From Takakia lepidozioides (lineage: Eukaryota > Plantae > Bryophyta), in assembly GCA_030704615.1 (NCBI GenBank), contig CM060734.1:47988001-48052000 (forward strand): DNA of 64,000 bases, in the 5' to 3' direction. The translations under genes and the position numbers were made by a program. Positions 3,319-61,690 of the stretch are shown in pieces (the first letter of the stretch is position 1; every line of letters begins with the position of its first letter). Under the pieces are notes generated by a model, which did no database searches, was not told the origin of the DNA, and saw only the letters and a list, made by a program, of their open reading frames with translations.

Positions 3319-3544
3319 TTCCGTGATGAAAACTCACACTCAAACTGGCTATCAAACCTCTCTAATCCCCCTTTTCGCAAGGAAACCAGGTAGAGAACCT
3401 GTTGCGGCTTATGGTTTGGAATATTAGGTTCATAACATTAACCTGCACCTACACCTGCATCCACCGCAAACACTCCTATGGTCGAGGCTCAAAATGTCCG
3501 CAAACTTGGATTCCAAACAGCCAAAATGCCCTAAGCGTCCGCCA

Positions 3545-16300: not shown

Positions 16301-16596
16301 AGATGGAGGAGGCAGGGTATGTGCCTGACACACGCTTTGTATTACATGAGTGGGAGGAGGAGCAAAAGAAATTTTCTCTTTGCCACCACAGTGAGAAGCT
16401 GGCTATTGCTTTTGGGCTGATTAGCACAGCCCCTGGGACGCCTCTTCATATCATCAAGAATCTTCTGGTGTGTGGTGACTGCCACACAGCCACCATGTGC
16501 ATCTCAAAGATTGTTGGGAGAGCAATTGTTGTACGCGATGCGAACCGCTTTCACCACTTCCAAGATGGGGTTTGTTCTTGCGGGGAGTACTGGTGA
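13397..16596 (+). pseudogene. PLS-class PPR-E-DYW (PG-type) RNA editing factor, disrupted
   Basis: Many P/L/S repeats (LVDMYAKCGS..DA..VF, VVSWNAMI.GYAQHG), E domain, PG box KEPG, HSEKLA, CxxCH, terminus [15 protein letters not shown]. Several frameshifts and an in-frame TAG at 16279-16281. Confidence 0.9.
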
Positions 16597-30049: not shown

Positions 30050-33000
30050 TCAGCTGCAACGTATAACTAATACCAGATATCCTAAGCTTATTGACTCTAT
30101 ATCTTGAAGCAGGAGCGCCCTGTCAAACAGGCTACGTCCTGACAGAGGAGGGTAGAAGAGTTTTTCAAGCAAATATTGACCACAAAGAAGCTGATATCAT
30201 CTCATTAAAGACCTTGTAAAAGACCTGCTAGAAATTACCCTATACTAGTCGGGAGCTTAAGGGAGGAATGCCAAACTCACCCCAAACAGCCACATTAGCT
30301 GTTTTGGAGCATCCTGACATGCACTCCTTGAGCACCCCCACTTGAATGGATTCTAGAGACTTAGCCTGGTTGGAATATCAACCCACACAGCAGATGCGTA
30401 CTCCACGGTAGACCTGATAACGCGGCAAAGCATGGTATTTTCTCACTTCAGAGTTTATCCTTCTGCAGTGGAAAAATTTAGTGAGACTCAACGCTTGCCA
30501 GATGGAATCACTTTCTGTATATGCGCTTCCCAATGACAGTTGGAGGAAAACTCAACGCCAAGGTATGTGTAGGAAGGGAGGACATGAATCTCTTGGCTTC
30601 CCCACTGCCACTTGAGTCCTCCCTCCCCACAGTCGTTGAATGCCACCACTGCGCATTTACTGACATTAGCCTCCAAAGGTCAAAGTATCTCTTCGCGCAA
30701 TCAATCAACTCCTGAAGATTGGATGGAGTCTCCCCTATGCCTGCGAAGTCATCCGCAAACATAAGGGCTGATATGGTTGCATCACTAGCCTTAACCCAAA
30801 TCCTTCACTTTCCACATCCTCGAGGAGTTGATTGATGGAAACATTGAAGAGCAGAGGGGAGAGGGTACATCCTTGAGCGTCAAAGAAGTTAGACTTCTGT
30901 CCATTAACAGTGACACAGCTTGTTGGTGTGAGCATACAAGTTATGGACCACTCTCTACATCTTTCCCGTGATCCCAGATGACCAGAGTCGGAGCCATAGA
31001 CCTTCTCCCCACATTGTGTCATAAGCCTTTTTGACAACCTGCAAGAAAAAGACAAAAGTGGGTATCCCTTCTTTTTTCCTCCCTGGATAATCTGGCTTAG
31101 AGTGAAGATATGATCCACACCGCCCCTGTTTCCCGAAAGCCAGCTTGGCCTTCATGGAAACAACCTCTAGACGCCAGATCAACCTTGAGACGAGTACTTA
31201 TAACTCTGCAAAATCTCTTGCCAACTGCATTGAGAAGCGTGATGCCTCGATAGTTCCCCGGCTCTTCTCTGTCACCTTTCTTGTATAGATTGACAATGAC
31301 CCCCTGTCGCCAGCGAAAGGGGATCATTTCAGTCCTCCAGATAAGGTTAAATAGAAGTACAAGGCCCTCTATCATGGGGTCGCCACCATGCTTGATAAGC
31401 TCGTTGACTATGCCATCAGATCCACCAGCTTTATATCCGTGTAAATGCTCAATTGGTTCCACAATCTCTGAAGAACTAATGGGAGCCTTGTAACCTATTG
31501 AGATACTACAGTTCATCAGGGCTGTCTTGAATAATAGGAACAGTTTTTTCAACTGTGTCCTTCCATTCTTCAGAAAGACCCCTCACTGTTAGACCTAGAA
31601 TTTCTGCCAAGGATACTGTAATGAGTCTCAAAGGTTTGGACAATGTCAACCGTTGAAGTCACCACTGCACCTTTAGTAGTCCTCAGCGCTTGCACTTGCT
31701 GACAATTTTTCAGCTTGTACAGACTACAGACGTTGAAGGGCCAACCAGAATCTCTTGTCATTGCCACCATGGTAGTTTGAGTTTATTTCACTGTATAACT
31801 TGTCCCAATGTAATTTCTTCGGAGACCTTACAAGCTGATTGATCTGGTAGTACCTAGCCCACAATTCTTTGTTGACTTTCAAATTGCAACACTCTTTATA
31901 GAGGACTCGTCTCTCCGCTATCTTGAGTTTGATCTCATTGGTCTACCAATTAACAGCTCTGCCACAGACAATTAGTTTCCTCCCAATGATCTTGTTAGCC
32001 ACAGAGAAGACAAAACTCTCCCAAGAATCCACCGCTCTTTTGACTTCATTTCTTGCATTGCCAAAGTGAGACTGAAGATCTTGGAGCGAATAGACTAAGT
32101 GAGGTAGAGCCTCTTGCAAGGCCTGGACATACACACCTTGACCTCTTCATTTTGGAAGTTTTCTATGTTGCGCCACTTCCGAGTCTATTTCATGGATCTC
32201 TTGGTGTTGGTGAAACACCTTTTGATCTCAGTCCAAACCCGGAAGTGGTCAGAGGTACCAATATCAGTTCTGTCGATCAACACATTGGCACTCCAGGGAA
32301 ACAAATACTAGTTCACTATGATATAATCCACAATGGATCGTTCGTCAGTTTGGGCTTTCTCACGAGTCCACTGCACTAGGTCTCTTTTTGACATATTATT
32401 CAAGGTCAAAAGCTGATGTTCTTCCAGACAGTTTATTAACGGTCTTCCATTAGAATTCAGCATCCTCATCAAAAGACCCAATGGTATCATCCTGATGAAG
32501 ACCTTTACCCACTCGGGCATTGAAGTCACCCACCTGACCTTTGGTTAGGAACTTAGCACAGTCCAGCTTTACGTCTTCGAAGGCTGTCAGCAGTAAGGGT
32601 CCCCTCTGGGGGCATGTAAACACAACCCACAAATAGGTCCTTCCTACTCACGCTGCCCTTCAATTTTAGTTTCAGCCAGATACTGTGCTCATACTGCAAA
32701 CCCTTGTTGATAATTTCACAATTATCACACAAAGAAGGCATGGAAAATGAAGCCAAAACCTTTTTGACCATGCTTGGCAGAGGCTGCCGTAAGTGCACAC
32801 ATCTTACCATACCATTTGCTTGAAGAACTTGTCCCACTTCAGATTGTTTCCTTTGGTTAGTCAGCCCCGAGAAGTTAAAAGTGCCCAGCCGCAAGCCAGC
32901 CCTTCGCATATGGATTGGTTGCCGTCTAGGTAACCTATGATTGCTCCTGGATGGCCAACCGATCTACAAGGTGGGGTCAATTCCCTTGTGTGGAGATTTT

Positions 33001-34073: not shown

Positions 34074-37015
34074 TTGGAGATAAAGAAGCTCAATGCAGAG
34101 ACCGTGATTGTCAAAGCTGAATTATCCAAGGTTTTCTTCTCTTCTCATGTCCACCCTTGTTGAGGAGTCTCAGAAGAAGTGGCAGAAGCTAAAGGGAAGT
34201 GGAAAACTTTGGAGACCATATATATTTTGTCGGATTAGACTCAATCACGGTTCTGTATGTGTTTCTCTCTGGCCCTTACATGGTGAACTGCTAGATCTAC
34301 CAAGATAACCTTCTCTTCATATCCTTGTAAGTTAGAGTCAACAAATTTCATCGACTTATTGTGCAATGAGGGTACACTGAAAATGTTCTAAGCATTACTT
34401 GCTGTATATTTTCCTTACCTACAAGCTGCAAAGCGTGGATGATAGTAACCAACCTAAATCTCAGTCGTGGGGAGTCTTGGGACTCACCACGGTCCATTGG
34501 GGCTATGGTGGGTGGGCCAAGACTTACCGCGACTCATCACAGGGACAGTCGAGGGTCTAAGTGGTGGTGCACCAGATTTGGACTTGTCTACTTGTGGAAT
34601 CCATGAGACCAATTCAATGGAACTGCGATTGCAGACCTTCCCTCAACCACTCCGCTGTCTCTTTGTTTATGGGATTACGCAAGTGCAACCCATCAATCCA
34701 ACCCTTGCTAAAGACTTCTTTCCAGCTCGAAGCTCTCGTGGTTGCTGTCAATCTCTGGACCAATGTCCCACGAAACAGAATGTATGCCACAGCATTCAAA
34801 TCAGAAAATGATCTCTCCATGTTCCGAACGTAGTTTTCCTCGATTAACTTCTCCAAATCCCATCTCCCTCCGATCTCATCCAACATCTTTCAGACCTACC
34901 TAGAAGCTCGCCTCTGGACAACTTCCATCTTCTGCAAGAAACAAAATGAAGATGCAAGCGGGAATTAACTGGTCTACCAATGGTGCCCAAATACTTCTTC
35001 CAAAGCTTTCCAACCAGGCCGTCTCTCAGCTCTACACTTATCCTTCAAACCCCCAGAGTTTTACCACTGGTACCGCAGCGGTGCCATCTCTTTCTGAGGC
35101 ATCACTTCGTCAGGTGTTCTCTATAGAGATAGTTCCTCCATTGAATGAGCACATTGCTCAGTACTTGAATACATTGGAAATTCCTCTAGGATTGAATCGA
35201 CATGCGCGACGAAGGCTTCGATAGCGCAACATGAAGTTTGCTCTTATGGGAGGGCAACTTTATAGAAGAGAGGGACAGTAGGCTTGATGGCTCAAGTTTT
35301 TCTTCAGCGCTCACACATCCTCTCCAATACCGAAGTGTGCATTCAGTCATTGAACACGATCTTGCAAGAAGATGGTGCCAGCCTGATGAGACCAAGTTAT
35401 CTCCTGACATCTAATTATCAGGATATTATGAAGGAAGATATTGAGAGCCCACAGCCTCCGATGAGGTCTGCAGCACCAGTAGTTATACTGGCCGTGAACC
35501 TCATTCTTTTCTTTCTGCAACAATATCTACTTTACACTAGAAAAAATCGTTGCAGGCTCAACCTTAGACTGGAGATTTGCGACTTTGTATCCAGTAGTGA
35601 GTGGGATATGGGTGAGAGAACTCTAGGGCGAACTAAGGAGATGCTAGATACAGAAGAAGAGGAAGAGGAGGTTACATTCTTTGAACATCCTCATCAGGTC
35701 TTTAGCTGAAAATCACAATCACTTATTTTTCTTTTTTCATGCACCCTACTCTTTATTGTGTTGAAGGTCATGCCTCAAGATAAAGCTCTTATTCACAAAA
35801 GTGTCATGGTGACTAGGTAAAACCTCTCTCCATACTAGGTTTGTTCATCACCCTCTGATTTGGTAGTTAGACAGAGGAAACCAATTGACAAATCTACCGC
35901 TCCCCTGAACATCATTTGTCTGATGAAGTTCTTAGTTCATGAGGAAAGCATAACATAGAAAGAGAGAGGAGATCAAGATTCTTTTGGGTTGTCCACAGGA
36001 ATCTGTGGAATAGGGCAGAACTACAAGAGAATACTACAAGATGTGTCAAGAAAACCATGTCTGAGGCTTGAAGATGGGGTGCCTCAAGTAGGCAACCTGC
36101 TAAAACACTTCAGGTCCTCATAACTGATAGCTTATTTTCTCTTTTGAAGAAAATGATTCATAACATATTTGTCGTACTCTTCTTTTCAGGAGGGAGAGAC
36201 TGACAGTGTGTGAGAAAACATGTATTGTTGTTCTTTGAACGGCTAACGGAAGGAAAGAATTGTCGGGAGGGCTGGGGGTGAATGTCAATAGTTGCAAGCT
36301 GGAGATATACAGTGATATAGAGGTGGCAAACCTGGCGCTGATGCAACAAAGCCAGGATGTAGAGGGCTTCCTTGAGAATCTAAAGACTAAACTGCGAGAC
36401 ACTCGTGAGACCAATGATGCCAAAATTGCACGCTTACGCTCCCAGCTTGCGGCAAGAACCCCAGTCTATTCTGACCCTCATCGCTTATTTCTTCTGAATG
36501 AGCCAATACCATTTCACCTTTATTCCTAGCAAACAACTAAGTGAAGAAGTGTGGCATGAGGTTTTTCCTCATCAGCAAACTTCAGCTTTGCATGGCTTCT
36601 TTTATTTGTTTGCAAGAAAATTTCCCTGGTAGAACTAAACCTCCAGCAGTCATTGTTGTTCAAAATTTACCAGTGATTTCAACCACCATTAAGGTCCATT
36701 TCTGCAGTGACAGATCTAGTCTATTATTGATTTTGTTCTGGTCAAAATACGTCAGTATGTACACCTGATTGTACTTAGCCCTGGGAGATAGGGAGGGAAA
36801 GCTGGATAACTTGGGACGTATTTGCAAATAAACTCTATATTAATGTTGGCCAGTTGCCTATCAGGTGCTCAAACTACAAGTGAAGACTGAAGAAGAGAAA
36901 CAGGTCATGCTCCGAACTAAAACCAATATGAATGTGGCAGAGAAAAAACATGAGATTTCATTTGAGGAATTGGCTGAAAAAGTGTTGGCCACATATTTGA
37001 AGTGTTGTAGTGTGA

Positions 37016-39214
37016 AAAGAAGGGGCGTGAATCCCCTTCTGTATAATTCCAATTGTGCTCCCCTCCATTTGATTGTTTGCGGAGTAAGAGGAAAGAAGCG
37101 TTCTTTCTAATCTGTCCAACTGTCGTCCCTTGGCTGTGGGTTTCCCTCAGCTCCTCCGTGATCAGAGTTCAATGCGATCCTCATCCACGCCGCAGCGGAA
37201 GGGAAGACATAGATGAGGATGTCAGTTTGTTGTTCTCTCTTGGTTCTACCTTTCACCCAACATCCCCTATCAGCAGGTACAGCACCAGCTAGGCTGGTGC
37301 GATGTATTCAGTGATGCAAATCAGCCCAATTGGCAGCGGTAAACACGATCCTTTATGTGAAGCCCACTTGAGCAGTGACAGGTCGGAAATCCCCTTTTTG
37401 TAGTGGTGACACAGATCTAGGAGGAGGCAGCTCAGATCTTCATGGTCTGCAGGGGCACTGGTTTCTTTCAGGTTTTCTTCATCTCATCTCCCCAAATTGG
37501 CCAAACCCCCCCCCCCAACAGCCCCTTAGAATCTGCAGCTCTCTCCTTGCCCAAATCCCATTTTCACTCTCCTCTCTCTCTCTCTTTCTTTTCCCTTTTT
37601 GTCTGTTTCGCTATCTGGTTTATGTCCCCAGGTTCCCCACTATTTCACAGCAGCAGATCTGTCATGTAATGTGAATGCACACGCTGCTAGGCATCCAGTG
37701 CAGCCAGCCTTGAGGTCATCCTTGGTCTCTCAAGACACAACCATCCCATCCATTTGTCTCTCTCTCTTTTTCTCTCTCTTGTCCCCCCTTTCAATGACCC
37801 ATCGCTCAAACAGCTCTCATCCTTTTTCTTTGTCAGACTTCAACCCAAATACCCCAACACCCCTCTTTTCCCTTCAACTGTGGAACGCAGTTGTTCAGAT
37901 CCTGATCCCATAGTGAAATCACCTTATCCTTTCCATGTTTTTCTTTTTCCAACTCCAGCTAACTATCATTGATCTCTCTCAAACAAACAAGCAAGATCTA
38001 CATTGGTTCCAGGTTATCACTACACCCGGCAGCATGGTGTCCAGGTTTATGATACTGAATCAAATGCAAGAATGAAGACAACAGTGACCATTCTGAATTC
38101 AGTGACGAGCAGGCTCTCTCTTTCTCTCTCTCTTCAGTTATTTCTCTCACTGTCATCACAGCATCAGGTGCATCCATCCTTTCCACGTTCTGGTCTGAAG
38201 TCCAGAGTCTCCATTCCCATTTCAAAAACTTTTTCTTGTCACATCTCTACCTTCTTTCTTCTGCCAAGATGGCAGTCCTAAATCTACCAAAGCAAGTTCT
38301 AAGTCCTACCAAAAAGAAGCCACTGTTCATCGACTTATCTGTTTTTATCCACTAGTGAAGCGGCGGGTCTGCCTGTCAAGGTGGCACCTTGCCATCGCCC
38401 GTCAACAGCCACTTCAACCCATTCTCTTTGTCTTGATTCCAGACCTTATGACGCCATGATGGCTCCCCTTCTTCACTTGGACCATCCTGTGGCCTGTCAA
38501 CCAGATTACACTATGCAATTCTTCCTCTCGAATTGGCCCGGTCCTATAACAAGGAGACACAAAGCAGCTAGAAGCTTAATGACAGAGAACCTGAGATACC
38601 ATGTAGCCAGAACTCCACATGCTTTACCTCCCCCCCATTGATTGTGCCCAGACCCTCTTTCCTGTGCTTTCAGCAGCTGGCCTTTTCCTTGCTTGCTCAC
38701 ATGCCCATAACTATCATCTTCAAGGCACTGGCGGCAGTGGTGGTGCGCCGCTTTCCTTAGATGCTTCTATCTCTTGGAATTGATCATTACTACGAGAGAG
38801 GCGGCACCGCTTCTTTCTACACAGAATACCAAGCAGAGGCCTCTTAATGCCGCTTCCTAAGCCAAGCAAGATCCCACCGCGCAGGTATACCTCCTAACAC
38901 AGGCTGCCCTGCCGACACCACTGCTTGCTACAGCCGCTACGAGTCATCCGTCATCTTCCTCTTCGTTTCTCTCAACCCGTGATCTTTTAGGTCAAGAACC
39001 AGTGATGAAAAACGTTCATCGCATGGATGAAAATGTGTACTGTCATGACTTAGCCATTTTCTCCTGGCAAAGCATAAGTTGAGTGTGCTCATGAAATTAC
39101 CTATATGAAGGGATACATCCTTTCTGCATTTTGGGATGACGGGCACTTCGTCATAGTGATGTAGGTCGTAATGGTATACATATGTAATGTTCTGTTCCCT
39201 GCATTCACACTACA
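37016..39214 (-). repeat. 3' LTR core (segment B) of Gypsy element 1
   Basis: Direct repeat of 45804-48001; the differences I could see are a few changes in homopolymer runs. Confidence 0.95.
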
Positions 39215-39225
39215 TATGTAGTGTG

Positions 39226-39236
39226 TCTCCCTTTTT
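39226..39236 (-). promoter_or_regulatory. Polypurine tract aaaaagggaga
   Basis: Purine run overlapping the pol stop codon, just upstream of the 3' repeat. Confidence 0.85.
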
Positions 39237-42200
39237 AAGTGTCAGGGTCCTCACTGACCACCTTCACTGGCTGATCACACACTGGTGGTAAGAAGGGTTT
39301 CAAGTCCCTCCTACTTCTTGTCCATTCCTTGTTTGCCCCATCTCTTAGCCTGCATCTGCGTGCAGCTTCCCCTATCCTTGTGGTGTTTCCTGCATCTTTG
39401 TACCCCAAAAAGTCATAAGGTCCCTCCCATGGAGATGTCATGGAAGATCTCTTTCCAGGCCTCAACATCATAACCTTGCTGTTTTCCATCAACTTGCAGT
39501 AGGTATGCCCAGTTTGATGCCTCCTTTCATAATCCCTTGCCTGCTGCCGCTGCCCTTTCTTCACCCTTTTTCGCAGCTTTGCCTTCATCTGTGTGAGAAG
39601 CTGGATTTTCTGCTGCATCATAAGTGTGACCTCTGCTACAGATCCATCAGAATTTACTGGTGTTGTAAGAAAATGCAACCTGTTGTCAATTCCCAGCCTT
39701 GGAATTCTACCAGTAAGTACCTGAAAAGGTGAGAATCCAGTGGAAGCATGGACACCCATTCTGTAACCAAACAGGGCCTTATAGAGATTCTGATCCCATT
39801 CAGTGTCGTTTCCAACTCCTAGGGTGGTGATGCTCTGTTTGAGAGACTTAATGACCCTTTCCACCATACCGTTACACTGAGGCCAGTAGGGGGCGCTATG
39901 CTCCCTCTTTATACCGTATTCGTGGCATGTAATTTCAAACTCACCTCCCCACTCTGTGCCATTGTCAGTGAGCAATGTATGTGGACAGCTATACCTGTCA
40001 ATTACTTCTTCCTCAAGAAAGCGGGCAGCAAGGGCTGCTGTATGATCTGCCACTGGTGCAGCTTCTATCCATTTTGAGAAGTGATCGATTGCCACAAAAA
40101 AATACTGATTGCCCCTGCTGGTTATAGGTAATGGTCCTGCCGTGTCAATTGCAACTCTGAAAAACAGATCTACTACTGGAATGCTGTGAAGTTTTGAGCT
40201 ACCTGAGCGCAACACTCCGTTCTGTTTGGCCATCTGACATTTACCACAGCCCTTGAGAACTTTCCTGATGAGTTTTGTTCTATCATGCCAGAAATAACGT
40301 CGGCATATCTCCTCTTGAGTTCTTCTGACTCCAAAGTGGCCAGTGGCTTCATGTACTTCAGTGATTATAGCCCCTCTGTCAGTTCTTGGTGGAACTACCC
40401 TTCCATCAAAGTAGACCTCTCCTTTGAGATAGGAGTACTGCCTTGCCCGCCTCTTGGCTCTCGTGCTCTCCTCTTTTGTCAGGTAGTCATTGACTTCTCC
40501 AAAACATAAGAGGTGCATGACTTCCACATCATCAAGCACATCAGGTTGCCTTTCCTCCTTAACAGCTGCTGTATGCCTGTCAGAGCTGATGAGAGAGCTT
40601 TTCCCCCATCTTTCAGCCTCACGTAATAATGACATCTGAGTAGCTTTGGTGGGTGCGGTCCATGGTACCCAGTCCCCTTCATCAATCTTGTTGCAAGAAG
40701 AAGTGTCTGGTTCTGAACCACTTGTTCCATTACTGTCTGAAGAACAAAACGTTTTAGTGGAACACTCACCCCCCAGGTTTTCCTTGGCTGGGCATTCTGA
40801 TGAGGAAGTCACCCGCGTTCTTCTTGTAGTTGGAGTGCTTGGCAAGTCTTGAAGGAATGGTGGCTCCCGCAAGCTTCCCTTTTCATTGTTCGACCTCTCT
40901 TCCACAAGTTCACAGGCTGGATGTACCTCGCTCAGCTCCTTGTCACGAGCACGAGATCCTCGAGTAATTACATGGATGGTGGGACAAGAGGGCATCAGAT
41001 GCTCCCCTTCCTCGTTGCTGATTGCAGTAGCCTCTTTCCTTCCTGCACCCTTATCCTTCCAAATACCCTCCCTTACCAGATTGACAGAGCGTGATTGATC
41101 AATACCCTTTCCTTGTTTTTTTGCAGCAAAAGTCTGTGCAGCAAAAGTCACCCTCTTTCCTTCTCCATCTGGCATTATGCCTGGTTTCAGTTCTCCCTTC
41201 AATATGCCATGATCCTTGGTCAACATTCTACCTGTGGAAGGTCTTACTATGCCCGGAACGAACTCAAATGAAAAGTCACCAAGTAAGTCTATGCCTATGT
41301 GGTGCTCTGAGTACAGCCACCAATATGGATCTAGATCTGTTTCCAAAGAAAAATGACTTCCCAACAGTATTTTCTTGAAGTGCCAAAGGCCCCATACACA
41401 TGCATAGTACTCTTCTCTTTTGCAAATCATCTCCCCTTTTTCACTGCTATACCCTACTTGCCTATGAGCTTCTTCTCTCAACTCCTCCTTACCCTCCTTA
41501 AATTGAAATAACGAAGCATTGATGGCACCCCTATCCCAAGCTAGCTTAAGAAGATAGGCTCCATCCCTCTTTCTCCCTTCTCTTTTCTGACTGTATAGAG
41601 AAGTAGAGTATACCTCGATTTCCTCGGTTTCCTCAGCTGGTCCCACTGGATACCTGCTTAGTGCATCTACGTTAGCATGCCTAGCACCTGCTCTGTGAAC
41701 AATTTTAAACTCAAAATCTTGTAACATCATGATCCATCTACCCCTGCGTCCATATGCGTCACTTACTGTTGCCAACCACTCCAGAGGTTTGTGATCAGTC
41801 CTGATTACAAAAGGGGTTCCATACAGGTACTGCCGAAAGTGTAATACTCCCCACACCAGGGCATAGCATTCACCTTCCATAGGGTGATATTTGCGCTGAG
41901 CATCAGATAGTACCTTACTAGCGTATGCAATGACCCTCTCCTTTTTATACTCCTTTTGTGACAAGACTGCTCCTACTCCTTTGATGGACCAGTCAACATC
42001 TAAGACGAACGGTCTTGAGAAATCTGGTCTTGCCAGGATGGGAGCAGTTACCAACTTCACCTGTAAGGCAGAAAAGGCGTTCTGTGCCTCTGCACTCCAG
42101 ATAAACTTCACATCCTTCTTGGTTAGAGTGAACAAGGGTACTGCCACTCCAGCATATCCCTTGACATAGGGCCTATAGTACCCTGTCATGCCTAAGTAGC

Positions 42201-45153
42201 TTTTGAGAGCAGTGTGGTTTTTGGGCAAGGGAAACCTTTCAATAGCTGCTATCTTATCTGGATCAGGCCACGTTCCCTCTTCAGAGATCACATGCCCAAG
42301 GAATACCAACTGTAAGTTGGCAAAGTAACACTTGTCTGGATTGAGCCTAAGATTGGCCTTTCTAACCTTGCTCAATACTCTCTTTATATGTCCCACGTGA
42401 TCTCCCCAGTCCTTGCTATGGATATTGACGTCATCTACAAACACCTTAGCGCAATCTTTGATTTCTTCCTTGAGCACTCTATTCATTGTTCTCTGAAAGG
42501 TAGCAGTGGCATTTTTTAGCCCGAATGGCATGACCAGCCATTCATACAATCCCTTCTTTGTGATCACCGCTGTTTTGCCTATGTCTCGGTCGTCCATTTT
42601 GATCTGCCAAAAACCAGATTGTAAATCCAGCGCAGAAAACCACTTGGCTTTCCCCAACTGGTTTAAAACATCCTGAATTAATGGCATAGGGTAAGAGTCC
42701 CTTCTGGTTAAACGGTTTACTGGCCTAAAATCACCACAAAACCGCTTGGATCCATCCTTTTTTGGTGGAAGGGTAACTGGACACGACCATTCTGAGCTAC
42801 TCTCTCTCATCTTGCCTTGTGAGATCAAAGTCTCAATTTGTCCTTGGACCTCGTCTTCCTCCCATTCTGATAGGCGGCTGGGACGACTTCTGCAAGGGGG
42901 AAAACCTTGTGTGTCAATTGTGTGTTCTACCTCACTGCAGTATCCCAAGTCAGCCTTGCTAAGAGCAAAGCATTCCTGGTTTGCTTTCAGCTCTTGCTCA
43001 AGCTCTATCCTATGTTCTGGGTCCAGTTCTGGGTTGATGTGCAGTCTGGATTTCAGACTTCTCCAACGACTCTCCATTTCTTCCTCTTGACTGGGTTCCC
43101 AATTCCTTCCCTCCACCTGGCTTACAGAGTTAGCCATTCTCTGACGTTCCTCTTCTGTGACAACCTGATTCCAATCATGGAAGTCATCCTCTATTTCTAG
43201 GTTGTTGTTCCCTAGTTCACCATTCCAAGCTTTCTGATAAGCTTCCTGTATTATGGCAGCAGCCATGCTCTTATGGGTCTCTTCCTGAAGGAGTTCAGAC
43301 ATCCCTTGGTCCTCGAACAAGTCCTCCCCTAGGTTGACATCGTCTATCATTTCCTCAACATCCCTCAGTGCTGTTTCTACCTCCTTACTCTCCTCAGAGC
43401 CTCCCATCTCCTCATCTTTATCAGATTTAGAGGTGTCAGAGCCTGAGGATGCTTCCTCCGTGTCCTCATATTCTTCCTCTGGTTTTCTTTTCTTCTCCCA
43501 CAAGCCTAGGTACTGTTCATCTGACGTCAGGGTTAGGACATTACCTGCTGACGTACTGCTTGCATATCTCATTCTACTCTCGACCCCTCTATGGTAGGCT
43601 GTTTTGGTAACTGCAGGCTCATTATAATTGATGGTGTGCAAAGGGAAGTGAGCAAAATCCTTTCCTGGCCCATAGCGTACGCGAATTGTTTCAGCTTCGG
43701 TGTCCACTACAGCGCCAAACTTTTTGAGAAAGTCCAATCCTAGCAGCATGTGATATGTATCCGTGTTTACCACCATAAAGGACAAACGATTGGTTAGTTC
43801 TCCTACTTTGACCTTGATGTCCTCAAGTCTGCCCATTGCAGTCTCAAGAGCACCTGAGGCTACTCTGTAATTCACATCCTTACTAGTAATGACAGATCCC
43901 ATCAAACCCAGATCCCTGACTGTACTAGCTGATATTACAGAAAGCATGGCACCAGTGTCAATCTGGCCTAATACTTGGTAATCTCCCATTGTAATCATTA
44001 CATGAAGCGCTTTAACCTTACCAGTATAAGCATACGAGATCGTGGGCTCAGCGTGTGCTGAGTACAAAGGCCTTGGTACATCCTTCACAACTTCTACACT
44101 GTGAGTTGTCTCCCTTTGTTGTACCATTGCTCTTTCCACCACTTTGACCAGCCCTTTCAATTTGTCTAGCTCTCCGGGCACAGTCATGATTAGGTCCATG
44201 GGCGACAACGATATTCTCCCTTTGTAGAAGTGGTTCAAGATTCTGGATTTCGTACCTCCTTCTATAGCATTCTTGAAATTGTTCTTTGGGTAGATTTCAC
44301 TCTTGGTCTTGCTTGGCTGTTCACTGCTCTCACTATTCCTTTCTGGTGACCCTGTAGGTTCAACAATCGGACTCTGGACAGGTATGCGTGTCCTTGGAAG
44401 TCTGACTTCATTGATACTATTTCGTGACATCAGATCTGTCATCTCTGCGAGTACATCATCCTCATCATCATAGAACACGTCTACAAAGTTAGTTCCCGGA
44501 GTTCCCATCATAGTTTGGTCGAGTTTTCTACTGCACTCACTCTCCGTATGCCCGAGTAGCTTGCAAAAGTTGCATCTCACACCACACATTTCCGTGGAAT
44601 GCCCGAACCGGTGACATTTGTCACACTTAGCTGGGGTTCTTCCTTCAGGACAATATGCAGCTATGTGACCTTCTTTGTGACAAACATTACAAAGGCGAAC
44701 ACGAGGTGGTGTTCTAGATCCCGAGCTTTCTCCTATGACTGGTCCCCTATCAAAGTACTTCTGTAGGGTAGTGTTCAGCTGATCAAGTCTTCTGTCCACA
44801 GGGTTGACAAACACAACTGACTCATCTGTATCATCTCCTTCCAATGGTTCTAGAGGTATTTCCCCTAACCTTCCCAGGCCCCTTTCAATCTCAATGGCTG
44901 TGTCAAGTGCTTCCTCTACATCAAGGAAGCGCCTGCCCAGCATTACTCTTGCTATTTCTGGTCTCAAACCTGCTGCAAATCTACGTCTCTGTTCCAAATC
45001 AGACGCCCCACTTCTTATAAATAACCGGTTCAACCTATCGAAGTATGTTTGAACCCTTTGTCTACTCTCCTGTTTAATGGTATCCATTCTTAGCCTAATT
45101 TCTGCCAAGTCAACGATACCAAACTTGGCTGAAATTGCTGCCCTGAAGTCCAC
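39235..45153 (-). CDS. Gag-Pol polyprotein (gag, 3 CCHC knuckles, protease, RT, RNase H, integrase); gag N-terminus extends to ~45350 across a frameshift at ~45240
   Basis: 1972-aa ORF: IDTGA protease, LDLQSGFWQ/VMPFGL/FVDD RT, DVDWS...TDHKPL RNase H, H..GHFG...C..C zinc domain and IDT..TDNG..GMVER integrase core. No chromodomain seen. Confidence 0.95.
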   Translation of the reverse strand: MDFRAAISAKFGIVDLAEIRLRMDTIKQESRQRVQTYFDRLNRLFIRSGASDLEQRRRFAAGLRPEIARVMLGRRFLDVEEALDTAIEIERGLGRLGEIPLEPLEGDDTDESVVFVNPVDRRLDQLNTTLQKYFDRGPVIGESSGSRTPPRVRLCNVCHKEGHIAAYCPEGRTPAKCDKCHRFGHSTEMCGVRCNFCKLLGHTESECSRKLDQTMMGTPGTNFVDVFYDDEDDVLAEMTDLMSRNSINEVRLPRTRIPVQSPIVEPTGSPERNSESSEQPSKTKSEIYPKNNFKNAIEGGTKSRILNHFYKGRISLSPMDLIMTVPGELDKLKGLVKVVERAMVQQRETTHSVEVVKDVPRPLYSAHAEPTISYAYTGKVKALHVMITMGDYQVLGQIDTGAMLSVISASTVRDLGLMGSVITSKDVNYRVASGALETAMGRLEDIKVKVGELTNRLSFMVVNTDTYHMLLGLDFLKKFGAVVDTEAETIRVRYGPGKDFAHFPLHTINYNEPAVTKTAYHRGVESRMRYASSTSAGNVLTLTSDEQYLGLWEKKRKPEEEYEDTEEASSGSDTSKSDKDEEMGGSEESKEVETALRDVEEMIDDVNLGEDLFEDQGMSELLQEETHKSMAAAIIQEAYQKAWNGELGNNNLEIEDDFHDWNQVVTEEERQRMANSVSQVEGRNWEPSQEEEMESRWRSLKSRLHINPELDPEHRIELEQELKANQECFALSKADLGYCSEVEHTIDTQGFPPCRSRPSRLSEWEEDEVQGQIETLISQGKMRESSSEWSCPVTLPPKKDGSKRFCGDFRPVNRLTRRDSYPMPLIQDVLNQLGKAKWFSALDLQSGFWQIKMDDRDIGKTAVITKKGLYEWLVMPFGLKNATATFQRTMNRVLKEEIKDCAKVFVDDVNIHSKDWGDHVGHIKRVLSKVRKANLRLNPDKCYFANLQLVFLGHVISEEGTWPDPDKIAAIERFPLPKNHTALKSYLGMTGYYRPYVKGYAGVAVPLFTLTKKDVKFIWSAEAQNAFSALQVKLVTAPILARPDFSRPFVLDVDWSIKGVGAVLSQKEYKKERVIAYASKVLSDAQRKYHPMEGECYALVWGVLHFRQYLYGTPFVIRTDHKPLEWLATVSDAYGRRGRWIMMLQDFEFKIVHRAGARHANVDALSRYPVGPAEETEEIEVYSTSLYSQKREGRKRDGAYLLKLAWDRGAINASLFQFKEGKEELREEAHRQVGYSSEKGEMICKREEYYACVWGLWHFKKILLGSHFSLETDLDPYWWLYSEHHIGIDLLGDFSFEFVPGIVRPSTGRMLTKDHGILKGELKPGIMPDGEGKRVTFAAQTFAAKKQGKGIDQSRSVNLVREGIWKDKGAGRKEATAISNEEGEHLMPSCPTIHVITRGSRARDKELSEVHPACELVEERSNNEKGSLREPPFLQDLPSTPTTRRTRVTSSSECPAKENLGGECSTKTFCSSDSNGTSGSEPDTSSCNKIDEGDWVPWTAPTKATQMSLLREAERWGKSSLISSDRHTAAVKEERQPDVLDDVEVMHLLCFGEVNDYLTKEESTRAKRRARQYSYLKGEVYFDGRVVPPRTDRGAIITEVHEATGHFGVRRTQEEICRRYFWHDRTKLIRKVLKGCGKCQMAKQNGVLRSGSSKLHSIPVVDLFFRVAIDTAGPLPITSRGNQYFFVAIDHFSKWIEAAPVADHTAALAARFLEEEVIDRYSCPHTLLTDNGTEWGGEFEITCHEYGIKREHSAPYWPQCNGMVERVIKSLKQSITTLGVGNDTEWDQNLYKALFGYRMGVHASTGFSPFQVLTGRIPRLGIDNRLHFLTTPVNSDGSVAEVTLMMQQKIQLLTQMKAKLRKRVKKGQRQQARDYERRHQTGHTYCKLMENSKVMMLRPGKRSSMTSPWEGPYDFLGYKDAGNTTRIGEAARRCRLRDGANKEWTRSRRDLKPFLPPVCDQPVKVVSEDPDT

Positions 45154-45791
45154 CCAGTTGTTTGGTCTAGGGTTTTGTTTACGGTACCATTCATCAGCCT
45201 TGGCTCTCAGGTTGAGCCTTGCTACCTTGAAAGTTTGTCCTCATTCAAATCCCTGACATCTGCCTCCATCTGAATTCTCTCCAGCCAGTCATTTACATCC
45301 TCACTATTCCTACCATGATAAGGCGCATCTATGCTGGTTGGACTGGTCATCCTTCTATTCTCTAATCAAAGTTCAAACTGTTTCAACACCTAATTCTGAC
45401 TCTAATTTTTCCGCAACTCCCTTAATGTTGACCTCTATACCACTCCCACTGTCCATTTCGCAACATCTCTACTCTACCTCCCCATGTCACCTCTCGTGCC
45501 ATGGTATTTATCTTCACCCACCTTCCTAACTCTCTTATCCAAAGTGCTATGGTTGTTCTTCCACCAGTATGAATCACTCTAAGACATAAATCACCATTAG
45601 CTATTCTCCAAGCAGGGTTGAAGAAGTACAAACAAGGGTCTGCGTGTGCATTTGGTGTGCGTCTGCTGAAGCAAATCAGCACATCTCCAATGCTTGGTTC
45701 ATCAGGAATCAGTGTGTGGTCTCTTCCTGCCATCAAACCATCCAATACCAGTCAAGATCCCTAGCTAGTAGAAATCAAGATTTAACAACGT

Positions 45792-45803
45792 GCTCTGATA
45801 CCA
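45792..45803 (-). promoter_or_regulatory. Primer binding site for tRNA-iMet
   Basis: tggtatcagagc on the minus strand, directly abutting the 5' repeat. Confidence 0.92.
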
Positions 45804-48001
45804 AAAGAAGGGGCGTGAATCCCCTTCTGTATAATTCCAATTGTGCTCCCCTCCATTTGATTGTTTGCGGAGTAAGAGGAAAGAAGCGTTCTTTCTAATC
45901 TGTCCAACTGTCGTCCCTTGGCTGTGGGTTTCCCTCAGCTCCTCCGTGATCAGAGTTCAATGCGATCCTCATCCACGCCGCAGCGGAAGGGAAGACATAG
46001 ATGAGGATGTCAGTTTGTTGTTCTCTCTTGGTTCTACCTTTCACCCAACATCCCCTATCAGCAGGTACAGCACCAGCTAGGCTGGTGCGATGTATTCAGT
46101 GATGCAAATCAGCCCAATTGGCAGCGGTAAACACGATCCTTTATGTGAAGCCCACTTGAGCAGTGACAGGTCGGAAATCCCCTTTTTGTAGTGGTGACAC
46201 AGATCTAGGAGGAGGCAGCTCAGATCTTCATGGTCTGCAGGGGCACTGGTTTCTTTCAGGTTTTCTTCATCTCATCTCCCCAAATTGGCCAAACCCCCCC
46301 CACCCAACAGCCCCTTAGAATCTGCAGCTCTCTCCTTGCCCAAATCCCATTTTCACTCTCCTCTCTCTCTCTCTTTCTTTTCCCTTTTTGTCTGTTTCGC
46401 TATCTGGTTTATGTCCCCAGGTTCCCCACTATTTCACAGCAGCAGATCTGTCATGTAATGTGAATGCACACGCTGCTAGGCATCCAGTGCAGCCAGCCTT
46501 GAGGTCATCCTTGGTCTCTCAAGACACAACCATCCCATCCATTTGTCTCTCTCTCTTTTTCTCTCTCTTGTCCCCCCTTTCAATGACCCATCGCTCAAAC
46601 AGCTCTCATCCTTTTTTTTGTCAGACTTCAACCCAAATACCCAACACCCCTCTTTTCCCTTCAACTGTGGAACGCAGTTGTTCAGATCCTGATCCCATAG
46701 TGAAATCACCTTATCCTTTCCATGTTTTTCTTTTTCCAACTCCAGCTAACTATCATTGATCTCTCTCAAACAAACAAGCAAGATCTACATTGGTTCCAGG
46801 TTATCACTACACCCGGCAGCATGGTGTCCAGGTTTATGATACTGAATCAAATGCAAGAATGAAGACAACAGTGACCATTCTGAATTCAGTGACGAGCAGG
46901 CTCTCTCTTTCTCTCTCTCTTCAGTTATTTCTCTCACTGTCATCACAGCATCAGGTGCATCCATCCTTTCCACGTTCTGGTCTGAAGTCCAGAGTCTCCA
47001 TTCCCATTTCAAAAACTTTTTCTTGTCACATCTCTACCTTCTTTCTTCTGCCAAGATGGCAGTCCTAAATCTACCAAAGCAAGTTCTAAGTCCTACCAAA
47101 AAGAAGCCACTGTTCATCGACTTATCTGTTTTTATCCACTAGTGAAGCGGCGGGTCTGCCTGTCAAGGTGGCACCTTGCCATCGCCCGTCAACAGCCACT
47201 TCAACCCATTCTCTTTGTCTTGATTCCAGACCTTATGACGCCATGATGGCTCCCCTTCTTCACTTGGACCATCCTGTGGCCTGTCAACCAGATTACACTA
47301 TGCAATTCTTCCTCTCGAATTGGCCCGGTCCTATAACAAGGAGACACAAAGCAGCTAGAAGCTTAATGACAGAGAACCTGAGATACCATGTAGCCAGAAC
47401 TCCACATGCTTTACCTCCCCCCCATTGATTGTGCCCAGACCCTCTTTCCTGTGCTTTCAGCAGCTGGCCTTTTCCTTGCTTGCTCACATGCCCATAACTA
47501 TCATCTTCAAGGCACTGGCGGCAGTGGTGGTGCGCCGCTTTCCTTAGATGCTTCTATCTCTTGGAATTGATCATTACTACGAGAGAGGCGGCACCGCTTC
47601 TTTCTACACAGAATACCAAGCAGAGGCCTCTTAATGCCGCTTCCTAAGCCAAGCAAGATCCCACCGCGCAGGTATACCTCCTAACACAGGCTGCCCTGCC
47701 GACACCACTGCTTGCTACAGCCGCTACGAGTCATCCGTCATCTTCCTCTTCGTTTCTCTCAACCCGTGATCTTTTAGGTCAAGAACCAGTGATGAAAAAC
47801 GTTCATCGCATGGATGAAAATGTGTACTGTCATGACTTAGCCATTTTCTCCTGGCAAAGCATAAGTTGAGTGTGCTCATGAAATTACCTATATGAAGGGA
47901 TACATCCTTTCTGCATTTTGGGATGACGGGCACTTCGTCATAGTGATGTAGGTCGTAATGGTATACATATGTAATGTTCTGTTCCCTGCATTCACACTAC
48001 A
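45804..48001 (-). repeat. 5' LTR (segment B only) of Gypsy element 1
   Basis: Starts TGTAGTGTG on the minus strand but ends ...ccccttcttt at the PBS, with no terminal CA. Confidence 0.95.
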
Positions 48002-48679
48002 GTGTAGGATGGACCTGGACCTTTTTCTTGGCACACTGCAAATGCTCACCATGATTGAGGTTTTTCCAACTCTCATCTTCAGTACTTTGAACTTCTACAC
48101 AAAATGTCCTTCAGCCCCTAAAGGGCATGAGATCGTGTCACCCGGTCTTCCAGATTGCCCAGATGCTACATTGTGCGGTCTTGGGTTTTACCACAGCTCC
48201 GAGGAAGAGAGAGAGATGAAGGGACTTGCTAAACACAGAACTCTTGTATCTTTGGGTATCAACATGTACAAAGACACAAGACATTGTTGATATTGGTCCA
48301 CAGGCCAAAATGGAGGATGGCTTGATGGCACTGAAATCTATTCCGAGTGATTATTCTAAGCAAATGGAGAAGGCCCGTGAGAAGGAGAGGCGTCTGGGAA
48401 TACGGGCTGAGAATATTGAGGCACTTCACCAAGAGCAAGAGAATCGTCGCATCAAGAGCCTTGAGCGTGCCAAAGTGAGCTCCCATCGATCTCTACCCTT
48501 ATGCCTGCAGATTTCATTCATATCATCCACCTGTCCGTCTATTGTGGCCCATGGGTTCCAAGCATAGATAATAAGTCTACTTCTTTCTACTTCTCTAGAA
48601 GCTCTTCAACTTCTTTCGCCTTTGGAAAGTTTATTTTCTTTGTTAAATTCATTTTTTTCTCTCTTTTTTTCTCTCTTCA

Positions 48680-49475
48680 AACTGAGGCCCTCTTCCGGCT
48701 TACAATTTTCCTGGTTACAAGCCCTTCCCCCCAAGGGGCTGGTGGCCAGGGCCCTCACAATATCTATGAGACTAAAAAATGCAGGCTTCAAACAATCTTG
48801 GTATGCTCGTGTGGATACCTTTTTTGAACGCCATGGACTTTCTATTGCTTCACTTTGCCAGTGAACCCAGAAGGGGTGATCATCACATCCAAGCATGACC
48901 GCAACCAATTCATCATAAAGGAGCTCATGGAGCTACATGTCAGGAGAACTTGGAAGTTACCCAACCTCACGACAAAGCTCCATTTCTATCGAGAAACATT
49001 CCTGGTTCTCCGGGATGATAGAATCTTGCGGCCCAGTTACCTTTCGGCCTCTTTGTCTCCTTCTCTCCTGAGGGCTTTAGGGCGGTTCAGGGTGGGCTCC
49101 CACAACCTACGGATAGAGATTGGCAGATGGGAAAACCTGCAGCGGGAGGACCGCCTCTGTCCAGCTTGCACAGGGCACAACCAGGAAATTGGAACTGAAG
49201 AAAACTTCTTCTTCTATTGCCCTCTATACCATGAGATCCGTGGGAGATTCCATTGTCTATTCCGTGGAACCCAATCTCTCACTGAGGTCTTTCATCATGA
49301 AGATCAGAAATGCTTGGCAGCCTACTTGCACGAGGCATTCACCCTTAGACAATCACTAGAACAATAGTTCTCATCTCTCTGTTTTCCTGTTTTCCCTCAT
49401 GTTTTTCTTTCCATTTTGTCCCATAAGCTCTATGAGCTTTCCGCGGACGTTATAAAGCACCATTTCATTTCTTTT
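48680..49475 (+). mobile_element. 5'-truncated LINE (ORF2 C-terminal Cys/His region plus 3' UTR, (CATTT)n tail)
   Basis: LGRFRVGSHNLRIEIGRW...RLCPAC...TEENFFFYCPLY..IR. Two shorter copies occur in the window. Confidence 0.85.
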
Positions 49476-54629: not shown

Positions 54630-56044
54630 TGCCCAGGGCTGCCAGGCTCGCACACACATTGCAAATGCACAAGAACGTGATGTGATTTGGCTTCACCCCT
54701 TTCCTGCATCATTTGCTCATAGGTCTCCATAACCTCCATCCCACACCCATGCTACCGTCATGGCACTCCAAGACACCACATTTCGTTTAGCCATATTGTC
54801 GAACACTCCCTTCGCGTCTTCAATGCACCCACATTTGGCATACATATCCACCAGGGCACTGTTCGGAATGACATCTGGTACAATTCCAGCTTTGACAATG
54901 TTACTATGAACCTCTCTGCCCTTCTCCAGGGCTACGAGGCTTGCACACACGTTGCAAACACCAACACACGTGATGTGGTCAGGGGCATGTGCTCTGTCCT
55001 CTCTCTCACAACAGAGGAGGTACCTTCTCAACTTGCTGCCTACTAAGGTCAACCAGGAGCTGCTCCATAGCCTTGCAATTTGCCATGAAGCTCTCGTCCT
55101 TGATATCAACACTGTCTTTCAGTACATTTAAACCCTGATCCAAACTCATAAACTTCTCCGGCCACCTGAAATTAAGGAATCAATTGAAGGAAGTGACAGT
55201 CTAAGAATGTACTCACCAAACAGCATTGCACTGCTGATGAAGCTGCGTAAGGCCTCCTTGTCTGCAGCCAAAGTGCTTTACTGTCGGAGTGATACCATGA
55301 TCTTGACTCAGGGAATCAAAGTAGCGTCTTCCTTCATTCAGTAGGCCAGTGTGGCTGCATGCAGACATAACACATATAAAGACTGTCCAGCTTCAAGCCA
55401 TTCTTTTGCATTCCTTCAAATAGTTGCAGGACCTCCCTATGACAACATGCTGGGCATATCCTGTGATCATCGCATTCCACATCTGGCATACATGTCCATG
55501 AGGATATTGTTCAGAACCACATCTAGTACAATTCCAGCTTTGGCGATGCAACCATGCCCTTTTCCAGGGCTGTCAGGCTTGCATACGCACTGCAAACGCA
55601 CACAAACGTGATGTGGTCGGGCTTCACCCCTTTGCACATCATTTGCTCATAGGTCTCCAAGGCCTCCATCATGCGCCCCTGTCGTGCATACCCTGCAAGC
55701 ATGGCGTTCCACGACACCACATCTCGTTCAGCCATACTGTGGAAAACTCCCTCCACATCCTCAATGCTCCCACATTTGGCATACATGTCCACCAGGATAT
55801 GTGTGAATCCACTTTGGATAATGTGAGTGTTCACCTCCTTTCCAGCTTCAAAACCTTCCATCTTGATGCACTTAAGCAAGAGACAGACATACGTATCTGA
55901 ATCTGCCGAAATGCCTCCTTGGTTTAGAGTCTGTAGAGCCTCTGTCAGTCTGCCTGCCGCACAAAGTATCTTCACATGCCTAGAAGTGCCAGAAGAAGCA
56001 TTGTGGACTCCCTCTCTTGATCCTCTTTCAGAAGTTGTGGTCAT
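54630..56044 (-). pseudogene. Third PLS-PPR gene, fragmented and interrupted by foreign sequence
   Basis: ORFs 55523-56044 and 54717-54985 carry PPR motifs. A DYW tail remnant FHHFEEGICSCGD lies further downstream at ~53130-53172. Confidence 0.8.
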
Positions 56045-57267
56045 AGTTTAGGTGCCTGATTCTATGAACTGTGCCGCTGCAGCTACTGCCTTTAGTTGGC
56101 CATCTACCCATGCAGGTTTATTGTAGCTATTGATCCACATGGAATCATAGGTCATCTGGAGCTTGAAGTCCGTCCTTCTTGGATGAAACTGTCCACCCAC
56201 ACACTATCCCTGCTCCTTCAGCTATCCATGCCTCTACACAAATCATACATACATCCTTGCATTGCTGCTATCAGCTGACAATGACAGCCTAGATCTGCTG
56301 CCTTTAGTTGACCATCTACCCATGCAGGTTTCTTGTACCTATCCTTCCACAGGGAATCATAGGTAATCTGCCGTCATATACCCATCACAGGTCCAATCCA
56401 AACAGCAGCCCTAACAACCACTTTTGGCAAGACCAGACATTTCAAAGACTGCGCTACATAATAAACTTACACATATACCACTGTCGTGCGCATACGTATC
56501 GCTACACAACTACATCGCTGTCCAAACTACACCACACATATATGCACAATAAATTAGTCTGCCACAATAGTGATTGAAAGAACTAACCTCACATGTCTGA
56601 TAACAAAGAAACACAAAACACAACACAATCACTCGTTAAACTAAGAGTCGAGCCAGGGGCACCCCAAGCTATGGGGACTCCACCCCACAACGTCATATTC
56701 TCCCTTCATAAACACACTCAGATTCTAAGCAGTGAAGGAGCTCGGTCGTGCAGGCTCAACTCGAGAGAAATGAGCCGCACGACTGACGCTCTCGTGAAGA
56801 TAAGATGGTTCATGTGTCAAGCTAAACTTGATACCTGACTTAATACTTGAACTAAATCCAAGTGTTAAATACAAATAACTAGATTTATTCTAGTTAGTTT
56901 CACACTGTGTTTATTTAACTTGACAGCTGTCGTGCGCATACGTATCGCTACACAACTACATCGCTGTCCAAACTACACCACACATATATGCACAATAAAG
57001 TAGTCTTCCACAATCGCCCCCCTAGCTGGTGGATAGGTCCTTCTAACTCCAGATAGCTACAAGATAGCCACAGCCGTACTAAGTCTTCTATCACTGTCCC
57101 TATTGTACTCAAACTCTATAGACCAAGAGGCCGGGTACAAGAGTAGCCCCATCGTTAGTCGCCGTCTTGCAATCTGTGAACTTGAGCCAGGATCTCGTGT
57201 GTTCAAGGTCTCCTAGTAGCTTGGCCTTGCATTTCTTGTTAGCCTCCCATGGTTGTATCCACTCCCA

Positions 57268-57415
57268 CTATCCAATGCAATGCGGACATAACCAATCCCC
57301 ATCAGGAACCATCTCAAGAGGTGGAGTCAAGCATCCCATATGCCAACCTCTAGAGCATCGATCACACACCAGCATGGTGGCTGCCCCTCTAGCAAACCCA
57401 CACAACATACACCTC
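57268..57415 (-). CDS. PHD finger at the integrase C-terminus
   Basis: CMLCG.......MLVCDRCSRGWHMGCLTPPLEMVPDGDWLCPHC (C4HC3). Confidence 0.92.
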
Positions 57416-60400: not shown

Positions 60401-61690
60401 CTATGCTGCAATCTCTTGAGCAGTGACCACTGCCTCCTCTGTCAGTGACAATGTCTCATTCTGCCCCATCATCCCATCCTTGAGGACCTCCTCAACCCGA
60501 GAAAAATCCCCAACCTCATCCATCACCGCCGCCTTGGCTGCCAACTCTTTCTGAACCTTGAGCACCTCCCACGTGTGCCATGGATGCGGCCTGCACCTCG
60601 TGGTCCTCACCTGTTCGCCCCCACTCGCTACATGTACCGTCTCGGTAGGCAGGAAGACCATCAAGGGAAGTGTACTCCGTACTCTGCGCTGCTCAGCCAT
60701 AGCCAAGCTGAGAATCCAGGTCAAGCAATTGAGATCCATTGCTTGCCCCAACACCTGACGACGTGATGCCTCAGAAAGAGATGGCACCGCCGTGGTACCA
60801 GTGATAAAACCCATTGCCCACTCGCGCTCGTCAGTATTGGGCTCTACTAATTGCTGCAACTGGCTATCCCACAAGAGGCAAGGTCCACCATCCCGAAAAG
60901 CATGGGATCCTGGAAAGCTGAGCAGTGTAGGCAATGCGGCTCGTGGGTGATCCACCTTATTGACCACTACCAAAGGTGACCAGTCATCGTGTCTCACACG
61001 CTGAGACTGTCTCCCACGCTGAGATTGTCTCCATATGTCCAAAATGCTATCCACCGTCAAGTGTGGTGGCCGCTGCACCCCATCAAATGCACGCTTGAGC
61101 AGTGCAGGTGGCATCAAGTTCGTCCACCATAGTCGTGGGCGATGAGCCCGTGACCCCACTGCAGCTACGTCCAGCAACACTCCTAATTCAAGCCAAGACC
61201 GCACTTGATACACACTGGCCATCACCTTGGCCCTAGAATCACCCATCAATTGCACATTCTCCAAGATATATGTCGGAGGGTCTGTCTACTGAAGCTGTAA
61301 ATAACGTAGGACCCTCAACATCTCCCAAAACAGGCGTGACCTTGAGTTTTGTAACCCATTGCCATGCCCGGCTGATGAATGCCCTTGGCAGGGCCAACCT
61401 GCCACTACCAAGTGAATAGGGTCAACCCGCTCCAAATCATGCGCCCCCAGCGGGGGGGGGGGGATGTCTGCTGGCAATGCTTGTTGGTATCCACGAACTG
61501 CAGACACTGGCAACAAATCAGGGTATTGCTGCACCAACTGAGCAACATGGCGCAGTGAGACGCGTTGTGCAGTCTCATCCCTCTCCACATACAAGTAACG
61601 TCGAACTCATACACCTGCCTGCAGCACTACAGCCAATCCAGTGTTGATCCCGCCAAACAAGTCCAGAAGGCATATGCCTTCATGTGGGCA
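60401..61690 (-). pseudogene. Cytosine-C5 DNA methyltransferase domain within pol (DNMT3/DRM-like flavour, unpermuted motif order)
   Basis: Motif I LDLFGGI, II YVERD, IV VVAGWPCQGHS.AG, V SRLFWE, VI YILENV, VIII AHRPRLWWTN, IX-X EREWAMGF...RRQVLGQAM. In-frame TGA/TAG stops. Confidence 0.9.

Follow-up and report, generated by a model that had tools for sequence, protein, structure and literature searches.

A 64-kb window of the genome of Takakia lepidozioides (contig CM060734.1, positions 47,988,001 to 48,052,000; the window is the whole stretch of DNA analysed here) carries a young copy, element 1, of a Gypsy retrotransposon lineage whose right integrase end, a short tip termed A, is kept beside the polypurine tract (PPT), and whose cDNA may well insert by joining its ends into a ligated circle with two long terminal repeats (2-LTR circle) that is then cut. 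The split layout of the repeats is real, heritable and lineage-wide, and from it we infer the mechanism. Joining followed by cutting is very probably the overall route, be the join made by ligation or by a jump of the reverse transcriptase (RT).

Terminal organization of element 1

Element 1 is 11.0 kb long and lies on the minus strand, along which its parts are described below in window coordinates. Its order is target site duplication (TSD), B, primer binding site (PBS), gag-pol, PPT, A, TA, B, T, A and TSD, where B is the long repeat and A the 9-bp tip. The left and right TSD copies, ACAC at 48002-48005 and 37002-37005 (both minus strand), pair at 4 bp only, with no match at 3, 5, 6 or 7 bp. 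The 5' copy of B (45804-48001, minus strand, 2198 bp) starts with TGTAG at 48001 and ends in CCCCTTCTTT at 45804 with no terminal CA, and the PBS TGGTATCAGAGC (45792-45803, minus strand), which we take to be of the initiator tRNA-Met type, begins at 45803 directly after B, with no CA in front of it. At the other side of the coding region, the PPT AAAAAGGGAGA (39226-39236, minus strand; relatives have ...GAAGGGG at the same place) is separated from the 3' copy of B (37016-39214, minus strand, 2199 bp) by the 11 bp of A-TA. Here A (39225-39217), TA (39216-39215) and the first 9 bp of B form an internal 20-bp palindrome (39206-39225, strandless), the putative template of the integrase cut site. 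The 3' copy of B is followed by one extra T (37015, minus strand), identical to the first PBS base, and by the terminal A (CACACTACA, 37006-37014, minus strand), the right attachment (att) end. This layout, with its palindrome, had been proposed in the sequence-only reading and proved correct to the base.

The same reading had explained the extra T as a copy of the 3' A of the tRNA primer, which fits, though not as the sole reading, since the T is one of four consecutive T and, in addition, extends the terminal inverted repeat to 11 bp, i.e., A plus two bases. Three single-base indels separate the two copies of B, and the absence of substitutions over 2.2 kb marks the insertion as very young.

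The anatomy of element 1 is far beyond chance. The palindrome at 39206-39225 is the longest perfect one in the window (20 bp; next longest 16), and when the 11-kb element was simulated 300 times with a Markov model, only two of the simulations held a perfect palindrome of at least 20 bp at any place. For the 9-mer A, 0.07 occurrences are expected per element on both strands, compared with four observed.

The split layout in the family and its relatives

Contigs were compared from four public sequencing runs (X1, X2, X4 and X7) of four studies, out of ten listed runs, no RNA run being among those listed, which has no bearing on expression; X1 may derive from the window's own source, and X2, X4 and X7 differ from the window at fixed sites. 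Contigs crossing from B into the PBS occur in all four runs. The complete insertion table for these runs (eight rows) holds no insert of 9-10 nt, no joint to other sequence is listed, and a conventional B-A-PBS form is listed in none of them. Just past the 12-nt PBS, copies of the family differ in the length and sequence of positions 45780-45791, the PBS itself being without listed change.

At the right end, X7 record 25 covers B-T plus six bases of A. Two contigs of X7 take A into other flanks, departing from the reference at 37006 into different sequence, so that B-T-A also ends other copies. B-T-A contigs are not listed in X2 or X4; the poor coverage of single-copy flanks there would lead one to expect this, yet it is a miss. 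X1 record 6, free of differences, and X4 record 24, free of gaps, both read through the internal palindrome, each with one short side. The start of X1 record 6 at the first base of A (39225) was considered as a sign of a junction and rejected, a variant about 30 bases inside B explaining it. Summed contig depth in X1 is about 100 times higher for B than for the flank, which is not a copy number; the family looks abundant.

Protein searches returned many relatives, with 54-66% identity in RT-RNase H and 41-53% in the integrase. Two of them, L072 and L073 from viral_contigs (57-60% RT identity), are readable as DNA, and both scans gave these same two loci. The 5' repeat of each ends in CTTT directly at the PBS, with no CA, and the PBS motif of element 1 is kept after this end in L073 and degenerate in L072. 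At the PPT, both have a 5-bp piece ending in CA, then two bases, then TG, the sites being PPT-TGACA-TA-TGTAA or PPT-TTACA-GA-TGTGA.

The layout recurs in a second family within the window, where the counterpart of A measures about 86 bp. Element 2 is a decayed Gypsy element (56482-64000, minus strand) with a PHD finger after the integrase and its 5' end beyond the window; its RT is 39% identical to that of element 1. Its 3' end (56482-57030, minus strand) consists of the PPT, X (about 86 bp), GC, Y and X, with differences between the X copies at 2 of 88 aligned bases and a 10-bp palindrome, GACAGCTGTC, at the X/Y joint (56922-56931). An open reading frame (ORF) of element 2 at 60401-61285 resembles a piece of a cytosine methyltransferase by eye, in its motifs, and has no match in Pfam, NCBIfam or the PDB. 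A remnant of a gag region at 728-3430 (minus strand) is about 80% similar to element 2 and contains internal duplications.

Other searches added no close relative. The B-end/PBS pattern matched 11 loci, with a retroelement encoded only at L073, and the PPT-plus-palindrome pattern had no match in viral_contigs. Genome_contigs gave 14 loci at 34-53% identity, none of them close, and a scan with the element 2 RT found no relative. A single-protein scan of viral_contigs yielded 53 loci at 27-31% identity, set aside as caulimovirus-like by size and identity; three caulimovirus-like loci from viral_contigs served as outgroup. In metagenome_contigs the 20-bp palindrome occurred at four loci; a retroelement ORF was absent from all four, which were rejected as chance or tandem repeats.

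Probable integration by joining and cutting of cDNA ends

In retroviral reverse transcription the tRNA primer sets the right end of the DNA and the PPT sets the left end, and in HIV-1 the final ribonucleotide of the primer is left in place by RNase H (PMC5618025). By analogy, the linear cDNA of element 1 would read A-TA-B...A-TA-B-T, where the last T would copy the retained 3' A of the tRNA, and the right end would be without CA. The terminal A of the parent lies past the repeat that is copied from the PBS and therefore cannot be inherited, so that A must move from the left to the right cDNA end in every cycle; this logic holds if PBS and PPT work as they do in retroviruses. The joint made by head-to-tail ligation of both ends into a 2-LTR circle would be a perfect palindrome of 24 bp, compared with 20 bp on the PPT side. 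Nicking of both strands after CA by the integrase would then release two processed ends in a single step, each with a 2-nt 5' overhang, and strand transfer of these ends would give the provirus as observed.

Cleavage of 2-LTR circle junctions was reportedly described for avian retroviruses by Panganiban and Temin in 1984 and by Duyk et al. in 1985. A likeness is also found in foamy virus, whose integrase acts in vitro on the palindromic LTR-LTR junction and cleaves each strand immediately behind CA (Delelis et al. 2005, PMC1180852), and end-joining is the route by which retroviral 2-LTR circles form (PMC9144474). In foamy and avian retroviruses, however, a half site of its own is present at each LTR end and the role of circles is optional or disputed, whereas in element 1 the left end is the template of both half sites, and the join thus appears obligatory. 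A free duplex A of 5-9 bp would probably be too short to survive, which favours joining before cutting. The origin from a 2-LTR circle that the sequence-only reading had put forward is partly supported: the need to relocate A is upheld, with a layout shared by the relatives and a precedent for the cleavage in vitro; the preference for a ligated circle over an RT jump or a nicked joint is the part that goes beyond the sequences.

Several points weigh against the ligated circle. A closed circle would carry two near-equal palindromes, and the product of the alternative opening, a B-T-A-TA-B joint, is not listed at the 3' end in any of the four runs, a weak test in which X1 amounts to 1148 short pieces shortened by nearby variants. 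HIV-1 junctions show deletions at about 9% per end in control cells (PMC5618025) and host end-joining is often imprecise; the joints in the element 1 family, in contrast, are exact, though only working joints would insert. 2-LTR circles are generally called dead ends, and the early claims of a precursor role unsubstantiated (PMC1180852). Furthermore, with full bridging of a joint defined as 31 letters on either side, the B/PBS joint is bridged fully only by X1 record 1 and X4 record 18, while in X2 and X7 the longest records crossing it reach 15-27 letters into B, and L072 and L073 are collapsed circular contigs in which outer ends and TSDs are invisible.

The same cut might also follow a different join. 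On completing the plus strand at the right end, the RT would switch to the left end, where the minus strand has its 3' terminus, and copy A-TA, so that a nicked, base-paired joint in the particle would be cut by the integrase, with no host ligase or covalent circle. Such a jump would yield the same provirus, single T included, would account both for the exact joint and for the cutting of the new joint only (no alternative opening being listed), and would be workable for an A of 5 to about 86 bp; moreover, end-to-end template jumping is described for non-LTR and group II intron RTs in the parts of the literature available. A search of that partly accessible literature, however, gave no such fixed step for an LTR-element RT, and no complementarity of the ends was found at the joint on reading. 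We regard the jump as possible, if somewhat doubtful.

Replication in the style of the split-repeat tyrosine-recombinase elements PAT and Ngaro is unlikely. In that case transcription would extend across the terminal A, copying would set out from the 3' end of the transcript, and the resulting circle would be opened by the DDE integrase, with PBS and PPT minor or vestigial. The order B...A-B-A does agree with that of split direct repeats (A-coding-B-A-B, as given in the available text of PMC5890265), but PBS and PPT are intact and abut B and A exactly in element 1 and both relatives, the extra T equals the first PBS base, a TSD is present, and a domain search of the long ORF of element 1 detects no tyrosine recombinase. 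It is highly improbable that the integrase first cuts the left-end palindrome of the linear cDNA and that the freed A is carried to the right end and joined: the end product would be the same and only one palindrome at a DNA end would be needed, but the piece is a 5-9 bp duplex in the element 1 clade, unlikely to persist, and the literature search found no precedent. A one-off rearrangement or assembly error in a conventional TG...CA element, to which the residual single-base indels of the assembly (three between the B copies, and a gag frameshift) might point, can be practically dismissed in the face of four runs from four studies, two relatives and a second family in the window; the view of the split layout as a family trait is confirmed by the lack of a conventional form in the four runs and by the agreement of the relatives.

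Integrase spacing and phylogeny

The lineage is also marked by a feature of the integrase itself. The second D and the E of the catalytic triad are 34 residues apart in all four integrases of element 1, element 2, L072 and L073, and alignment to foamy virus integrase reveals the one-residue gap of DD(34)E. In a spacing survey, in which 223 of 244 rows aligned across the region, 119 of 120 close integrase relatives have the 34 spacing, and in 98 of these the two catalytic residues are both intact; among 99 distant Gypsy proteins, 93 have a spacing of 35, five have 34 and one is broken.

An RT-RNase H tree (IQ-TREE) of 39 rows chosen from 130 was built before the spacings of these five were known. 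Four of the five distant proteins with the 34 spacing share a 13-row group with elements 1 and 2 (support 92/89, below the starred threshold), and the fifth, P0015, falls outside it. Element 1, L072, L073 and five relatives are grouped with 100/100 support. A placement of element 2 as sister of the element 1 clade, given by FastTree at 0.916, was rejected, the two forming part of a polytomy within the 92/89 group in IQ-TREE. Among the distant DD(34)E Gypsy proteins P0078, P0056, P0073 and P0040, the first combines a Dam-type adenine methyltransferase with a PHD finger, and the second has a PHD finger.

The sequence comparison suggests a single origin of the split layout and the one-residue deletion, in trees that hold no named plant lineage. 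We consider it likely that the whole Gypsy clade marked by DD(34)E uses end-joined cDNA as its obligatory integration substrate, with both att half sites templated by the PPT, the integrase acting as a site-specific endonuclease on the joint, and the element 1 subclade representing the minimal form with an A of 5-9 bp. If so, such an A would pass as a spacer and be missed by ordinary LTR annotation. A literature search for DD34E returned papers on Tc1/mariner among the 15 of 57 matches listed, and no listed paper describes this mechanism for LTR retrotransposons.

Coding content and classification

The long ORF of element 1 (39235-45240, minus strand, 2001 amino acids) encodes gag, protease, RT, RNase H and integrase, with domains at residues 407-513 (protease), 826-985 (RT), 1048-1176 (RNase H), 1617-1673 (H2C2) and 1699-1786 (rve); gag was recognised through similarity to L072 and L073. 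The integrase has an HHCC finger and a DDE core with DD(34)E, and its best match among solved structures is foamy virus integrase (E 3e-18), which is usual for Gypsy integrases. A 5' part of gag (45231-45377, minus strand) lies in another frame than the long ORF, two frames matching consecutive parts of the L072 and L073 gag by tblastx, and the resulting frameshift near 45240 may be an assembly indel. Within the long linker between RNase H and integrase lies a second, RNase H-like piece (41248-41556, minus strand), a degenerate duplicate of the C-terminal part of the element's own RNase H, with 32-35% identity to the RNase H of L072 and L073 by tblastn and a match to PF17917 (E 1e-4) below the cut-off. 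There is no chromodomain in the ORF at E up to 0.001, the domain search detected no Dnmt3 domain in element 1, and no further ORF above 146 amino acids occurs within the element.

Judged by its sequence, element 1 classes as a non-chromovirus Gypsy element by its proteins and as a variant by its ends. With canonical Ty3/Gypsy elements (Metaviridae; REXdb plant lineages, PMC6317226, in its available parts) it shares the order gag-PR-RT-RH-IN (protease, RT, RNase H and integrase after gag), the HHCC DDE integrase, the PPT, a PBS of the tRNA-Met type, a TSD of 4 bp within the 4-6 bp of the group, and provirus ends TG...CA. Unlike in these, two equal TG...CA LTRs running from PPT to PBS are absent: the 5' repeat is without A, and an extra A-TA follows the PPT, so that the terminal repeats are not the PPT-to-PBS unit; the integrase spacing is 34 instead of 35. 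The chromodomain that defines chromoviruses at the integrase C-terminus is missing, as is the archaeal-type extra RNase H (aRH) of Tat (OTA) elements, the weak second piece being of the native RNase H type. Phygy elements have a 4-bp TSD of the form NCGN and a PBS mostly for tRNA-Trp, and Selgy elements a tRNA-Ala PBS and a length of 4.4-6.7 kb (REXdb Additional file 5, PMC6317226, as far as available); element 1 has the 4-bp TSD ACAC, a PBS of the Met type and 11.0 kb.

The nearest published case, compared by description only, is an algal one, KnitGypsy-Dnmt3 of Klebsormidium nitens (de Mendoza et al. 2018), for which Gypsy domains are combined with DIRS-type repeats (A-coding-B-A-B) in the Fig. 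4 legend (PMC5890265). The claim that such an architecture was unknown among DDE LTR elements was therefore slightly too strong, the layout being in print, although no mechanism is offered there. The available text of that account contains no analysis of mechanism, att site, PBS/PPT or TSD (PMC5890265), no other paper within reach of the literature search names the element, and the protein searches returned no K. nitens sequence. KnitGypsy-Dnmt3 has a Dnmt3 domain in pol, which element 1 lacks as far as detected, and in contrast to it the split piece of element 1 is only 9 bp long and resembles a primer spacer, not a repeat.

Element 1 has the split direct repeat order B...A-B-A, and it is like the split-direct-repeat tyrosine-recombinase retrotransposons PAT, Ngaro and VIPER in this order and in holding a copy of the junction inside its 3' end. 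These retrotransposons use a tyrosine recombinase and are not known to make a TSD; element 1, unlike them, has a DDE integrase, PBS, PPT and TSD. No description of obligatory join-then-cut integration of an LTR retrotransposon was found in the literature search, most subscription journals and Repbase Reports lying outside its reach.

Target sites and genomic surroundings

The target sites are ACAC at element 1, GTGG after element 2 (56478-56481) and GTGG beside A in the two-contig X7 consensus (37006); their similarity may hint at a target preference, from three cases. The left flank of element 1 (48002-48010) ends in CTACAC, an echo of A. Clusters of pieces of PLS-type PPR genes with many frameshifts (13200-20300 and 54630-56050) flank element 1 on both sides, the abundance of PPR genes in the neighbourhood being in keeping with a land plant, and short LINE-like fragments with RT and C-terminal parts were recognised by eye at 31097-31582 and 48828-49367.

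Implications

End-joined (2-LTR) DNA as an integration precursor has been debated since 1984, with 'dead end' as the prevailing answer (PMC1180852, in the text available), and the prior record of the split layout in print is one passing mention without mechanism (PMC5890265, likewise). Elements of this kind would be overlooked or given wrong bounds by LTR finders that insist on matching TG...CA repeats with a TSD on either side. An integrase that cuts the internal palindrome of a circle and inserts the circle would also be of interest as a tool. With a very young copy in a seemingly abundant family, circles and cDNA ends should be catchable, and the lineage, which appears unable to form its right att end without joining its cDNA ends, would offer a natural test system for the question of the circular precursor.

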